Positions 260 through 6,574 of a stretch of DNA of 64,000 bases are shown here, piece by piece; position 1 is the first letter of the stretch; each line of letters begins with the position of its first letter. Source of the stretch: an uncultured delta proteobacterium (GTDB lineage: Bacteria; Desulfobacterota; RBG-13-43-22); contig CAWDKY010000017.1 in the NCBI GenBank assembly GCA_963802945.1, positions 96,001 through 160,000 on the forward strand, given 5' to 3'. A program made the position numbers and the translations under genes. A model generated the notes under the pieces. That model had not been told where the DNA came from. It made no database searches and saw nothing but the letters and a program-made list of their open reading frames with translations.

Positions 260-796
260 TCAATAGATATAGGGCAGAAACCTCCAGGTTTTCCGGCGGT
301 ACTCTCGATAATCCGGAAACTGTTCGGCCAACAGATATTCTTCCTGGGCCACCTTGAGGACATAGAGGATGGAGAATCCCACCCATAGGGGCACGCTCAA
401 CAGGCTGCCGAAGAGCAGGATCCACCCGCCGAATATCGCGAAGCCGGCCAGATACATGGGGTGGCGGATCTTGGAGTAAACCCCGGAAGTGACGAGAGAT
501 CCCTCCACCCTGGGCTGGGCATGGATGCGAAAATTCCTCCCCAAGGCCCGGAAGCTGAAGAATGTCAGGATCAGGCCAGCGAGAAGAATGGAAAGGCCAA
601 GGACCTTCTGCGACCCGGCCACGGGTCGCTTCCTCATGGCGCCCTCCAGGGGTGCCAGGATCAGGATGAGGCCTTGAAGGATCAGATACGCAGTGCTGAT
701 CCATTTTCGCTCGACAGGGCGTTTCCCAGATTCGGGATGGGACCTGATAAAAGAAAATGGGCCGTTCCCGCATTCATCCATTCCGAGGAAAATCAT
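260..796 (-). CDS. Isoprenylcysteine carboxylmethyltransferase (ICMT/PEMT)-family membrane methyltransferase
   Basis: Hydrophobic protein with LVTSGVYSKIRHPMY, EE..L...F.DYREY and RFLP motifs; exact start uncertain. Confidence 0.85.
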   Translation of the reverse strand: MIFLGMDECGNGPFSFIRSHPESGKRPVERKWISTAYLILQGLILILAPLEGAMRKRPVAGSQKVLGLSILLAGLILTFFSFRALGRNFRIHAQPRVEGSLVTSGVYSKIRHPMYLAGFAIFGGWILLFGSLLSVPLWVGFSILYVLKVAQEEYLLAEQFPDYREYRRKTWRFLPYIY

Positions 797-1744: not shown

Positions 1745-3257
1745 TCATTCTTGCGGCGAAGGGGAGGCGTAATGCTGGGCCGTTTCACGCAGGAATTGGT
1801 TCTTGAAGACCGGCCAGGCGCACACCGGCATGAACCTGATTTCCCGGGTCAAGGGGTGCTCGTAGGCAAAGGACGCGGGGCAATCCTTCAAACGCTCGCT
1901 TTCCAGGTTGGCGGTCTCCTCAAAGGGCAGCACCATGATCCGCAGGATATTGTGGCACTGGGTGTGGCGCCGCAGCAGATCCTTCAACTTAACTCCCCTC
2001 AGGAGGCCCCAAAGGATCAAAGCCACCTTCAGGACTACCTGGTTGCCAAAAACCTCCTTGAAGCGGATGGTCCGGTTAAACAGCCCCAGCACTGCGCGTC
2101 CCGCCACCCATTGCCGGCCGCGTCGGCCGAACCATCGGGCCATCAGGCTATGTTCCAGTTTTTTTCCCAACAACCGGTCCGCTTCGATCATGAGGCGCAC
2201 CATCTCGGACAAGGGCATCTTCAGGTAACGGGAGAGGGGATGGTAAGCCTGACCGTCCGCTATCAAGAGGGTGGCGGACTCGCAGTTCGGATGCGCCCCG
2301 CCGAAGGTGAGCCGCCCTAAATCGAAGGTCGCCGTCAGGTTAGGCAATCGGTACAGGACCGCCGAAGCAATGAATTCTGTACCAGGCACGGCGTCAGCGA
2401 TCATCCGTTCCACGTCCTCGATCGTTGTGTCTTCGGCTTCCACCGGTTCCGGGCCCCAGGTTTCGGTCAGCGGGATCAAGTCAAGGGCCGCGATATAATC
2501 CTGCCCTTCGTAACACATCCGGATCAAATCGGCCATGTCCTTATCGTTTACGCCCAGACCCGCGAACACATGATCGTGATCTTGTATTGATGATATTTCC
2601 GGATGTTTTCCAGGGCCTGGAGTTTGTTTTCATAGGCCCGCGGGGTTTTGCGAATCTTGTTGTATATCTCGGGATTGCGCCCGTCGAAGGCGAACATGAG
2701 CTGGGTGCCTGTTGCCAGAAGCTTCTGGCAGTACTCGGCGTCCGCGAGGCGTATTCCATTGGTCACTACACGCGCATGCAAGCCGTAGGAGGCGGCCAGC
2801 TCAATGATCTCAATCAAGTCGTTACGAACGGTCGGTTCCCCCCCGAAGAGCTGGATCTTGGGTCGAGGATTCATGAGGGTGAGCTTTTGAAATATTTTTG
2901 TAAAGTATTCCATCGGCGGATTAAATTGGAATCCCATGGCCGGGATGTTGGCCAGGCAGATGGGGCAATTCATGTTGCAGCGATTGGTCACGTCGAGAAA
3001 GACGAGGGTCGGAGGTTTACCGTGGTTGCAGTCTGTCGCAATTCAAGCCGCAGAAGCCCGGATTCGCCGTATACCCCAGCAGGTCGCGTTTCTCCTGATA
3101 GTGGGTTGCGTTCGAGGAGACGAGGGAGGCAGAAACGCCGCATTTCTGGCACTGCTTCTCGAGGTAGACCTTGCCGTTACTGATCTTATGCCGGACAGGG
3201 ACGACCTGACTGCACGTGGGGCAGATACCCAGATTCTCCTGCTTGATGATGCTCCAT
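1745..3257 (-). CDS. Radical SAM protein of the tetraether synthase (Tes/GDGT-MAS)-like family, split by about 3 indels
   Basis: Joined frames give ICPTC..VYLEKQCQKC, CGLNC.DCNH, FLDVTNRCNMNCPIC, GGEPT, TNG, HPNC, DCPASFAY and RFMPVC; ATG at 3257 with a purine-rich RBS. Confidence 0.8.
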
Positions 3258-3270
3258 ATCCCTCTCTTTT

Positions 3271-3858
3271 TTATTTCTCCAGGTCATCCCGCAGAAGGTC
3301 CAATGTGGTCCAACCTAAAAGGAAATCAATAATATCGAACCAACGGGTGGTCTCTGTGAACCCAATCCAGCCCAGGTGGAGAATCCGGGGACCGCATTCC
3401 ATGAACCACAACTCGGGAGGCGGGTTCTTACCCATGAGGGCGCCGACAAAGCCAACATCGTATTTTTGCCGTTCCGTGATGTTTTTTTGATTGCTGCGTG
3501 CCTGATGAGGATCAGCGGGATTGAACTTGCCCGCCCCGGACTTCCTCTGGCCCCAGGCCAAGAGGCCCCAGGCCTGAAATTCATAATCCAGCCATCCAAA
3601 TTGGCGATTTCCCAGCCCAAGGTATTTGCCCTTAACGTCGGCGTATCCGAAGGGGGTTAAAGAGGAAAAGTCAAAAAAGGCGGCAAACTGCGGCTTCAAC
3701 GCAGGCGTCACCGTTATTCCTATGTCCATGATATCCAAGGCGTCATTGACCCGATTTCGCAGATAGGGGCTGCTACTGCTACACCCTTGGCTGAAGAAAG
3801 CTACGGACAAGATGGAAATGATCAAAAACCTGAGGTGCCGGTTATCTTTCTTTTCCAT
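3271..3858 (-). CDS. Putative lipoprotein of unknown function, co-transcribed with the radical SAM gene
   Basis: MEKK + hydrophobic stretch + SQGC lipobox; 13-bp gap to the downstream ATG. Confidence 0.7.
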   Translation of the reverse strand: MEKKDNRHLRFLIISILSVAFFSQGCSSSSPYLRNRVNDALDIMDIGITVTPALKPQFAAFFDFSSLTPFGYADVKGKYLGLGNRQFGWLDYEFQAWGLLAWGQRKSGAGKFNPADPHQARSNQKNITERQKYDVGFVGALMGKNPPPELWFMECGPRILHLGWIGFTETTRWFDIIDFLLGWTTLDLLRDDLEK

Positions 3859-3979
3859 GACGCCTAAGACTCCTCTCGATTTAATCGGTTTAATATAGCA
3901 AGAGACGGCCAAGAGTCAAGAAAAAAGTCGGTAAGTGTTAAGGTCATCTTAGTTACAATATTTCGACAGAAAATAGTGG

Positions 3980-4420
3980 GCCTAATCCGCATCGTCCCTG
4001 GCCTTGGGGCAGGGTAGAGGGTCGCCCTTCCCGGATCAAGTCAGGGACAGGCTCCAATTTTTTGAATCAACCATACCTATTTCCAGTTGGATTTTTGCTT
4101 TCATCTGGTCGTTCGACCTGGAGGCTCTCGACAGGTCCCAGGACACAGGGAATGAGACCATCCACATTTTTTTTTTGACGAAAACCACGAGAGATGTTAC
4201 TAAAGAAGACGTAATAGCGAATCCCGCCAACGGCGGGACTCGCTATGGTCGGGTATATGAGGGGGTCATAGCCGCCAACCAATCTAAGGCGTCGAATATT
4301 TTTCGGCCGGTTGTCCTTGGATCGATAGATGACTTAAGACCTTTCCGGGAGATAGGGCTTACCTTCCTGCGAGAAAGAAACCTGGATGATATAGCGGGCT
4401 AGGTTTATTCTCCGATTGTT
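3980..4420 (-). pseudogene. Degenerate IS91-like (Y2) transposase C-terminal fragment
   Basis: Broken frames read NLARYIIQVSFSQE..YLPERS*VIYRSKD, IFDALDWLAAM, IRYYVFFSNISRG and LIPCVL, ending in a decayed zinc-ribbon-like tail; internal stops present. Confidence 0.7.
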
Positions 4421-4450
4421 CCCGGATCGTCTGGTTTCGCACGTCAATCG

Positions 4451-4488
4451 TTGGCTGACCGGCGTGGAGATCCACGCCGGTCAGCCAA
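4451..4488. repeat. Perfect GC-rich hairpin (18-bp arms, 2-nt spacer)
   Basis: ttggctgaccggcgtgga-ga-tccacgccggtcagccaa. Confidence 0.9.
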
Positions 4489-4529
4489 GAACGGAAAAAA
4501 TCTTGTTAGTCTTGGATAGACCACTTGTC

Positions 4530-6574
4530 ATGATTTCGAAAGGGTATTCACTATCGCGCCAGACCGAAGCGTTGGCAGAGCTAGAGCGAGGAGTGCATGC
4601 GGCACTGGAGACTTATTCCAATGTCCACCGGGGCAGCGGGCACAACTCGATGGTGTCCACGCATTTATTCGAGCAGGCCAGGGACATTGTCCTGGAATAC
4701 CTGGGGCTGAACAAAGACAAATACGTGGTCATCTTTTGCACCCCCAGAAGGGCAGAGGTGCTCAAGGCACAACTTGAGCCTGGAAGTTATCAAAGCGTGT
4801 CGAGCCAGGACATCGGCCTGCCGCTGGGTGTAAGGGCGTTGGCTGTCGAAAGCAAGGCGTTGCCCAGAGGCACTCCTTTCCAGACCGGTGGAGGGACGGC
4901 CAGGCTTGTCTCCCCCGGTTGGGTCATCTGGGCCAATGCGCCGGACAAATTCGAGGCCGGCACGCCCGCGATCGTCAACGTCATCGCGTTTGCCAAGGGC
5001 CTGCGGCTGATCCGGCATTTCGGAAATGACGCTTTCCAAGATAATGGCGATGACACAGCCGACAGAGGTGGACGGCCGCTGAAATTCTGTACCACGACGA
5101 ACTGGAGAAATACTCCGGGCGGGAACTGTTGGATGAACTCAGGCAGACCCTGATCGGTCGCGGTGTTCGTGTCCCAACGGTGGAAGGCGCCAGGCCCTAT
5201 ATCAACCTGGACAACGGCGCCAGCACTCCCACATTCACGCCGATATGGGACGCGGTCTGCCAGACATGGCGCCAGCCCAGGCAAGTGCAGCAAGAGATCA
5301 TTCATGAGGTCAAGTCCATCTGCGCCGAGTGTCCTGGGTGCGCCTTTGGCAGCCTATGATGTGATCTTTACTTCCAACACCACTGAAGCCATCAACCTGG
5401 CGGCCGAAAGTTTGCGATCACAATGAATCTCGAAGCACGAGGCGATCGAACCGGTCGTGCTCAACACGCTCCTCGAACACAACTCGAACGAGCTGCCGTG
5501 GCGCATGGTTCCCGGCTTTTCGCTGATCCGGCTGCCGGTGGACGCTGAAGGCTTTGTGGATTTGAACGAGCTGGAGACGCTCTTGCGCGCATACAACCAG
5601 AAGGGTCAGCACGGAAAGAAGCGCATCAAGCTTGTGGCTGTGAGCGGCGCTTCGAATGTCCTCGGCGTATTCAACGATCTGGCGGAGATCAGTCGAATCG
5701 TTCACCGCTATGGGGCGCGCTTGCTGGTGGATGCGGCGCAGTTGGTCGCCCACCGCAAGGTCGAGATGGAAGAATGCGGGATTGACTATCTCGCCTTCTC
5801 TGCCCATAAGGTGTACGCGCCATTCGGCAGCGGCGTGTTGGTGGTTAGAAAGGGGCTGCTTAATTTTAGCCCCGCCGAACTGGAGCTGATCCAATCGTCC
5901 GGCGAGGAAAACGTGGGGGGCATCGCCGCGTTGGGCAAGGCGCTTGTGCTTTTGCAGCGGATCGGCCTGGACGTGATCCAAGAGGAAGAACAGGCTTTGA
6001 CCGGGCGGGCATTGCGCGGCCTGGCGCAAATACCGGGCCTCAAGATTTACGGGATACAAGACCCGGACTCGCCCAGGTTCGCCCAAAAAGGCGGCGTCAT
6101 TGTCTTTGGCCTGAAAGACATCATGCCCAACCGGGTGGCCAAAGAACTGGCCGAGCAGGGCGGGATCGGTGTGCGATACGGTTGCCATGTGCGCTCATCT
6201 GTTGATCAAGCGACCTGCTCAAGATTCATCCACTGCGTACGGGCATAGCTGGCCAGGGCCTGATCCTGTCCCCTCGATTCGCCAGCGTCACCCTGCCCGG
6301 CCTCGTCCGCGTGAGCCTGGGCATCGAGAACAGCGAAGAGGATGTGGACACATTGATTCGTGTGTTGGGCAAAATCGCCCGGCAGTCCCGGGCCTGGGTG
6401 AACAGGCTTCTCGGTTCGAGTCGCAATGGAACGCCCTTCTTGCCGCAAACAGAAGTCGAAAGCGAAATACAAGAGTTTGTCCGGGCTGCAATCGATCGAG
6501 TCTATTCATTCGATGGTGTTTTAAATTCTGAAGAATACTGCATTAAGCGGAAAAACACGCCCCTCGGAACCTAA
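4530..6574 (+). CDS. Class V aminotransferase / SufS-like cysteine desulfurase with an N-terminal partial duplication, split by several indels
   Basis: N part has SNVHRG and KFEAGTP; C part has YINLDNGAST, IFTSNTTEAIN, EHNSN, DAAQ, FSAHK (PLP Lys), RYGCH/CAH and RVSLG; visibly GC-richer than the rsmA-rml region. Confidence 0.8.

Follow-up and report, generated by a model that had tools for sequence, protein, structure and literature searches.

Can two incomplete copies of a SufS-like cysteine desulfurase, joined in one chain, stand in for the two subunits of a dimer? This question is raised by a disrupted gene at 4530–6574 in a 64,000-nt stretch of DNA from an uncultured delta proteobacterium (positions 96,001 to 160,000 of contig CAWDKY010000017.1, assembly GCA_963802945.1; the whole stretch is called the window here, and nucleotide positions refer to it). 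A first-pass annotation made from the letters alone had described the product as a single-chain pseudo-dimer with complementary motif loss, and all motifs that it named are present (SNVHRG, KFEAGTP, DAAQ, SAHK, SSGEEN and QTWRQP, as well as RYGCHCA when read across an extra base at 6189). We consider it likely that the gene is a member of a widespread and uncharacterised group of pyridoxal 5'-phosphate (PLP) enzymes of about 620–720 amino acids (aa), which are single-chain SufS-type pseudo-heterodimers; architecture, conservation and homology are established here, the docking of the halves is predicted and the activity is what we infer. Computation lends good support to the pseudo-dimer interpretation at the family level: the halves are fused and of common origin, their deletions complement each other, the residues concerned are conserved, and docking is predicted.

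The 177-aa N-terminal piece of the window copy finds thousands of proteins in a search limited to longer proteins; their annotation goes no further than class V aminotransferase, or selenocysteine lyase/cysteine desulfurase. Among the 120 matches listed, most are 620–720 aa in length and 68–93% identical to it. A search of contigs with one genome per species matched 71 loci. Uninterrupted full-length homologues, which had been named as a check on the fusion, are common: 45 of the 50 near full-length loci examined carry a single open reading frame (ORF) of 620–721 aa and five are broken, so the fusion of the two halves is real. The metagenome-assembled genomes in which the loci lie bear the labels Anaerolineae/Chloroflexota, Bacteroidota, Acidobacteriota, Coriobacteriia and Actinomycetota. 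An exhaustive HMMER search yielded 555 cluster representatives (50%-identity clusters, E ≤ 1e-30), dozens of them full-length two-part proteins with identities as low as 41%. Both a cluster look-up and a protein atlas gave generic names only, and literature searches found no published description of a two-part SufS-like family.

Both halves of the window copy are recognised by the same Pfam profile, PF00266 (Aminotran_5), with a similarity well above what chance would give. The N piece scores 56 bits (E 4.3e-15), well above the gathering cut-off of 21.5 bits, and covers the profile in two stretches, at about 20–80 and 197–279; the C pieces score 22.1 bits (5334–5423) and 156.9 bits (E 9.1e-46, 5427–6194). 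Taken alone, the N piece finds 41 distinct SufS/CsdA-type sequences of solved structure, all at E ≤ 0.01 and the best at 7e-10, with its residues 29–62 aligned to chain residues 58–91 and residues 86–170 to chain residues 225–309, and its SSQD motif aligns with chain residue 226 in the E. coli SufS entries. The closest relatives of both halves are single-domain proteins of about 465–485 aa and about 40% identity (P0232, P0233, P0240, P0244 and P0254), in which YS[NS]VHRG, a GGG hairpin, EEAG[ST]P, SAHK and GCFCAH are all found within one chain. In hhalign profile-profile comparisons with these relatives the C part aligned with an E value of 2e-113 and 39% identity and showed two major gaps, at the NVHRG loop (10 residues) and at the Gly-rich loop, hairpin and EAG (19 residues), while the N part aligned with a probability of 99.9% (E 2.9e-34), spanning template positions 30–307 without about 100–215 and placing SSQD opposite SAHK. 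The proposed origin of both halves from one SufS-like subfamily is supported by these alignments. Compared directly, the N and C profiles show only a weak relation (E 4e-5), and BLASTP of the window N piece against the C piece revealed no similarity (E 0.89); direct similarity is weak because the halves retain different parts, and the relation becomes visible only through the single-domain family. Against a single-domain relative the window N piece gives segments of 54 and 57 bits, with 53% identity around NVHRG, compared with 41.9 bits against the best solved SufS. As the N piece is thus nearer to a single-domain relative than to solved SufS, internal duplication is favoured over a fragment captured from elsewhere. 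A FastTree phylogeny was built from the C parts of 77 two-part proteins and from 13 single-domain relatives, with four paralogues from the window genome as outgroup; in it the C parts fall into a single clade (support 0.957), to which the single-domain clade (0.952) is sister. Another atypical class V paralogue of the window genome, L002, has a 474-aa open frame in which GGHRSRH replaces NVHRG; it further shows SIHK, FEVGVQ and, at the Cys loop, DGLFCVHS.

The complementary motif loss proposed from the window copy was borne out by the profile comparison and holds across the family. Conservation was assessed in 77 two-part sequences with 39–87% identity to the intact relative P0001, whose residue numbers are used in the following. 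In the N copy the NVHRG loop is preserved (H51 in 73, R52 in 76 and G53 in all 77 sequences), as are the Gly-rich loop and EAGT (G138, G139, E160 and G162 in 77/77, T163 in 76/77). The column of the former PLP lysine contains Lys in none of the 77 sequences and is occupied mainly by Asp (49) or Glu (18), with Ser (3), Ala (2) and Asn (2) in a few cases. In the C copy, D412, Q415, S435, H437, H328, R560 and T299 are invariant, K438 and C565 are found in 76 sequences each and C563 in 74, and HRG, GGG and AG[TS]P each occur in 0/77 sequences at the sites of deletion. The C copy therefore carries the complete SufS catalytic set, namely the PLP lysine, the Asp facing N1 of PLP, the stacking His, the substrate Arg and the short-loop Cys (window positions 5808, 5730, 5478, 6174 and 6190, respectively). 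What it does not carry are an NVHRG loop, a Gly-rich loop with hairpin and an EAGT of its own, which every SufS/CsdA chain of about 400 aa possesses. [quoted passage not shown]

We propose that an ancestor resembling the present single-domain relatives of about 475 aa may have been duplicated and subsequently fused. The C copy would have retained the whole fold together with the catalytic residues acting in cis (PLP Lys, Asp, stacking His, substrate Arg and the GC[HF]CA loop), and would have deleted the segments serving the active site of the neighbouring subunit, one being the NVHRG loop between alpha3 and alpha4 and the other the Gly-rich loop with its beta-hairpin and EAGT. The N copy would have kept just these trans segments on a reduced scaffold and lost the PLP core and the lysine. 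Docked on the C copy at the position of the partner subunit, as the models predict, it would complete a single active site. Most likely the enzyme would use PLP to desulfurate L-cysteine (or selenocysteine), the loop cysteine carrying the persulfide, and it would have one site and might be monomeric.

An AlphaFold2 model of P0001, built from the 77-sequence alignment, reached a mean predicted local distance difference test (pLDDT) score of 93.3 and a predicted TM-score of 0.93. The best Foldseek matches of this model are SufS entries (target-normalised TM-score 0.76–0.88), and residues 210–634 superpose on complete SufS chains with Z scores of 34–36 and a root-mean-square deviation (rmsd) of 1.9–2.3 Å over about 370 residues (VIA-align), so that the predicted catalytic domain has the SufS fold. 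When N residues 20–195 and C residues 212–637 of P0001 were submitted as separate chains with PLP added, the interaction score ipSAE was 0.95, 0.95 and 0.94, compared with 0.00 in the best of three controls; the mark applied here is attained by 116 of 157 solved complexes and by 2 of 215 mismatched pairs. At least 94% of the contacts agree between runs, and the partner pLDDT is at least 87. Among the contacts predicted with the lowest error are those of T163 to T299, N297 and H437, of residues 161–168 to 297, 299, 437, 442–444 and 472, and of residue 137 to residues 333–334. On the N side the predicted interface contains residues 52–58 and the Gly-rich loop segment 136–147, on the C side residues 328–330, 435, 437, 556–562 and 565, which in the model correspond to the region of the PLP-stacking His, the phosphate-binding Ser/His, the strand of the substrate Arg and the catalytic Cys. 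In this prediction the N part docks at the presumed partner position, with the EAGT threonine and the Gly-rich loop placed on the active site of the C copy and the threonine set against its phosphate-binding residues. Folded alone, the window N piece has a mean pLDDT of 74, which falls below 50 exactly at residues 35–42 (NVHRG loop) and 118–140 (Gly loop and hairpin); these low values fit elements that would be ordered only against the C part.

The same predictions bear on a different explanation, in which the N part is a structural or regulatory appendage, or a canonical homodimer persists, and the active site is not completed by the N part. That the docking is a prediction only would agree with such an arrangement, as would the middling fold matches of the N part alone: all 50 matches listed are PLP enzymes, with Z scores of 6.1–8.1 and 8Y96 chain C at the top. 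However, the segments kept by the N copy are exactly those missing from the C copy, they are invariant or nearly so in sequences with as little as 39% identity, and in the two-chain prediction T163 contacts T299 and H437 while the Gly-rich segment 136–147 shares an interface with the Cys-loop residues 556–562 and 565. We therefore regard an appendage as improbable and return to the pseudo-heterodimer.

Several points weigh against this preferred interpretation. The structural evidence is entirely predicted, and the two-chain result may reflect memory of the model because the halves resemble the solved SufS homodimer; the calibration counts are only rough because our prediction used its own alignment and a riding ligand. 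For SufS we take T278 to lie on the PLP phosphate of the partner subunit, a placement that we have not found stated in print. Named families are not reached either: the NCBIfam model for sufS (TIGR01979) has a cut-off of 475.1 bits, compared with 263 bits for P0001 and 222.7 for P0003, a second intact relative, and P0001 scores 185.8 and 164.6 bits against cut-offs of 661 for PRK09295 and 607 for CsdA. In the NCBIfam scan of the intact homologues no named family reached its cut-off. Around the 45 intact loci we found no SufE, SufU, suf operon or conserved neighbour; the best neighbour cluster occurs at 7 of the 45 loci, and the nine commonest are ADH, DUF4386, ABC, amine oxidase, SQS_PSY, S9 peptidase, response regulator, MalT-like and DUF6326. 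Two of the five carrier genomes checked additionally encode a canonical SufS that scores above cut-off. Because of the scores below cut-off, the lack of Suf neighbours and the co-occurrence with canonical SufS, the two-part family is not a plain SufS orthologue. The conservation of H51 (73/77) is not explained by the E. coli enzyme, in which H55A has a minimal effect (PMC11507941). Finally, the window copy itself is broken at five places.

Compared with known systems, the family shares features with SufS/CsdA and also differs from it. In the model the C part has the same fold as the enzymes of E. coli (1JF9, 6MR2) and B. subtilis (5J8Q, 6KFY) at 28–33% identity and shares their catalytic set, and each hallmark of the type II enzymes (the Gly-rich loop, the beta-hairpin, the NVHRG loop and EAGT) is found somewhere in the two-part chain. 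Whereas every SufS chain carries both cis and trans elements, and two identical chains form two sites, the trans elements of the two-part proteins are located on the cut-down N copy and deleted from the catalytic copy; in addition, a further conserved Cys (C563) lies two residues before the catalytic one. The single-domain relatives share VHRG[ST]G..S, the GC[FH]CAH loop and a leading 'IG..v.VPt..G' with the two-part family and differ in their single domain; they are presumably ordinary homodimers. In GcvP, the P-protein of glycine decarboxylase, two homologous halves pair as a pseudo-dimer of fold type I in which only the second half carries PLP, and the protein occurs both split into alpha and beta subunits and as a fused single chain; both of its halves keep the full-size fold, and family and reaction are different. 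Chain B of 1WYT matches the C part (Z 23.5) and chain A the N part (Z 7.1), and among the structures listed for a joint superposition there is no single-chain GcvP that covers the two halves together, but 1WYT chain B on the C part alone. The top structural match of the window N part is Ser4 (Z 8.1, rmsd 3.0 Å, 118 residues aligned) of SerTA, the heterooligomeric aminotransferase Ser4/Ser5 of Serratia sp. ATCC 39006 (PDB 8Y96; PMC11726168). In SerTA the complete copy, Ser5, has as its partner Ser4, a short fold-type I copy of about 210 aa that lacks the lysine, and the two give one active site; SerTA differs in being encoded by two genes, in forming a heterotetramer of separate chains, and in belonging to the sugar-aminotransferase family and catalysing transamination, and a complementary deletion in the catalytic chain is not among the features given in the available part of that report (PMC11726168). 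Two separate polypeptides of the sugar-aminotransferase family are not what we found, since 45 of 50 loci have one ORF and the domain is Aminotran_5. The published analogue of the short-partner principle is SerTA, with separate chains of another family.

A more far-reaching version of the proposal would make the family a natural one-chain, one-site SufS-type desulfurase that has a conserved Cys-x-Cys loop (C563/C565), is independent of SufE/SufU and bears all trans elements on a fused vestigial copy. As a self-contained module for mobilising sulfur or selenium, it would have been passed by gene transfer between anaerobic members of the Chloroflexota, Bacteroidota, Acidobacteriota and Actinomycetota. 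We put this forward tentatively and hold it to be doubtful as a whole.

Some members of the family depart from the common pattern. P0182 (686 aa) has Met at the position of the PLP lysine, Ser in place of C563 and Gln in place of H567, with 17 deviations in conserved columns compared with a median of 2, and from its sequence is possibly an inactive member. P0178 and P0185 consist of the C part alone (about 460 aa) with the NVHRG and hairpin sites already deleted, which makes them either split forms or gene calls that were cut short; should they be genuine, an N part encoded by another gene would be required. The two-part unit also occurs inside large predicted proteins of about 1500–6900 aa (P0127, P0150, P0163, P0186, P0187, P0188 with 6923 aa, P0204, P0223 and P0248), which are possibly eukaryotic or merged gene models. 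A domain scan of such proteins (sizes 887–3349 aa; P0188 left out) found HD, HATPase_c, protein kinase with PMI, GNAT with NUDIX, and 2-Hacid_dh among the additional, unrelated domains, which give no functional lead for the two-part family.

In the window itself three-frame translation shows no single ORF from the ATG at 4530 to the TAA at 6572–6574 on the plus strand. Ungapped tblastn with the intact P0001 and P0003 follows the coding sequence through frame 0 (4530–5063), frame 2 (5066–5326) and frame 0 (5334–5423), and after a TGA at 5424–5426 again through frame 0 (to 6185/6188), frame 1 (6187/6190–6210) and frame 2 (6212–6571). The features are compiled in Table 1. The first-pass annotation had made the fusion depend on one erroneous indel near 5100; this did not hold, as we found five lesions, at about 5064, 5330, the TGA at 5424, 6189 and 6213. 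Because the reading frame is broken five times, the assembled copy cannot yield a protein. RYGCHCA can be read only when base 6189 is skipped, since RYGCH lies in frame 0 and CAHLLIK in frame 1. The lesions were defined in a DNA alignment of the window with eight intact homologues. At the first, the linker has 11 extra bases relative to at least seven of the eight and is one base short of a P0003-type linker as inferred from the protein. One base at 5328–5330 is missing in some related environmental contigs, and a base at 6188–6189 is missing in one contig of environmental run X4. At the third lesion the extra bases shift AAT GAA TC out of register, which creates the TGA; the loose ends of contigs at 5416 read CAATGAATCCGAGC, and the relatives therefore read the same letters one base over. 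Programmed frameshifting or recoding was rejected, with five unlike lesions that are missing from at least seven of the eight aligned intact homologues.

Table 1. Features of the disrupted SufS-like gene and of its neighbours in the window
Feature	Position	Strand	Basis
Whole gene, disrupted two-part SufS-like (Aminotran_5), intact size about 640–680 aa	4530..6574	+	tblastn with P0001/P0003
N-terminal cut-down copy, frame 0, without the PLP core of about 115 residues	4530..5063	+	Pfam, hhalign, matches to solved structures
SNVHRG, alpha3-alpha4 loop motif, N copy only, frame 0	4617..4634	+	His/Arg correspond to E. coli SufS H55/R56
SSQD, vestige of the SxHK strand, Asp at former PLP-lysine site	4800..4811	+	Opposite SAHK of single-domain relatives
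Gly-rich loop (GGG), beta-hairpin and FEAGTP, N copy only	4887..4967	+	Alignment and conservation
KFEAGTP, frame 0	4947..4967	+	Motif search
Lesion 1, net -1 (frame 0 to 2), lineage-specific linker, near 5064	5053..5065	+	tblastn and DNA alignment
C-terminal complete SufS-type fold, four frame pieces	5198..6571	+	Pfam, superposition of P0001 model
QTWRQP, frame 2, C-copy site without the 10-residue NVHRG loop	5261..5278	+	hhalign gap opposite YSSVHRGtGfKS
Lesion 2, one extra base (frame 2 to 0)	5330	+	Not in at least 7 of 8 aligned intact homologues
Lesion 3, nine extra bases (4+4+1), variable loop, in-frame TGA 5424–5426	5417..5438	+	DNA alignment
DAAQ (PLP N1 Asp), frame 0, catalytic copy	5730..5741	+	Motif search
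SAHK (PLP lysine), frame 0, catalytic copy	5799..5810	+	Motif search
SSGEEN, frame 0, C-copy site without 19 residues (Gly-rich loop, hairpin, EAGT)	5895..5912	+	hhalign gap
Catalytic Cys loop, RYGCH (frame 0, 6174–6188) and CAHLLIK (frame 1, 6190–6210)	6174..6213	+	Motif search
Lesion 4, extra G	6189	+	Not in at least 7 of 8 aligned intact homologues
Lesion 5, one extra base	6213	+	Not in at least 7 of 8 aligned intact homologues
Radical SAM gene, three frame pieces	1763..3169	-	PF04055 at 2563–3036
PEMT/ICMT-family membrane methyltransferase, flanks radical SAM gene	260..796	-	
Lipoprotein-like ORF, signal peptide ending FSQGC, flanks radical SAM gene	3271..3912	-	

The window copy is either a very recent pseudogene or an artefact of assembly or polishing, and we rate the two as about equally probable, each falling somewhat short of an even chance. 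Around the gene, GC content is raised over an island of about 7.5 kb, which extends from about 1 kb before the start of the window to 6600 and is probably horizontally acquired; its 1-kb blocks have 52–58% GC between stretches of 39–43% inside a 512-kb contig. If the five interruptions are real mutations, the gene would have been inactivated recently within a decaying island of foreign origin. The GC contrast agrees with this, and the gene was found in none of 20 genomes searched from the same family, 13 of them from the same genus. Also in line with decay, the adjacent radical SAM gene has two frame changes, and a counterpart of it was detected in just 3 of 200 further genomes from the phylum. 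Large genes beyond the limits of the island are intact, and the three single-base insertions are not within homopolymer runs. On the other hand, of 97 covered residues with at least 90% conservation 96 are kept, the lone deviation being common to P0003, where long decay would lead one to expect more, and the breaks coincide with the junctions of a mosaic.

It is this mosaic that speaks for the other origin, in which reads of abundant close homologues from other organisms were mixed in and the real gene of the organism is an intact, P0003-like ORF. The N-terminus (4530–4575), the linker (5040–5075) and the tail (6144–6574) resemble P0003, and the core resembles P0001; in total 81 positions agree with P0001 only and 44 with P0003 only, and a further 60 positions of tail and linker are present only in P0003. 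P0003, whose start, stop and final 120 residues are matched by the window copy, is intact with the same ends (682 aa) on a 1.15-Mb contig. Breaks 1, 4 and 5 are located at mosaic junctions and breaks 2 and 3 at variable spots, and environmental contigs from four studies cover 4554–6401 with 90–99% likeness. The near-perfect retention of conserved residues fits this origin as well, but the remainder of the 512-kb contig appears clean and the indels are not of the homopolymer type. Among sequencing runs none was found with the window's own sequence, the best share of sampled words being 0.30; the four wetland-labelled runs compared gave short contigs of other organisms that cover the core only and leave 4400–4553 and 6402–6555 uncovered. 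An exact 40-base pattern from the lineage-specific tail had no match in metagenome contigs, and the tail protein (6212–6571) reached a best match of 72% identity there.

Apart from the SufS-like gene, the island contains a TPR lipoprotein-like ORF, a methyltransferase and the radical SAM gene. The latter has frameshifts near 3037 and 2563 and shows 37–73% identity to a 473-aa protein named radical SAM protein of Ca. Sumerlaeota. A general link of the SufS-like family to radical SAM or ICMT neighbours was considered and rejected, as about 155 loci other than the window, mostly stretches around family members and relatives, gave no radical SAM match and one ICMT match.

For the window gene, a functional annotation requires a check of the reads first. 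The two-part family itself is abundant in metagenome-assembled genomes from anoxic habitats. Communication between the subunits of the SufS dimer has been studied with regard to the beta-latch, the alpha3-alpha4 loop and half-sites behaviour. If the pseudo-heterodimer holds true, every chain of the two-part family would have one cis set and one trans set, so that each side could be mutated independently, and the family would provide a clean example among PLP enzymes of complementary degeneration after duplication and fusion.

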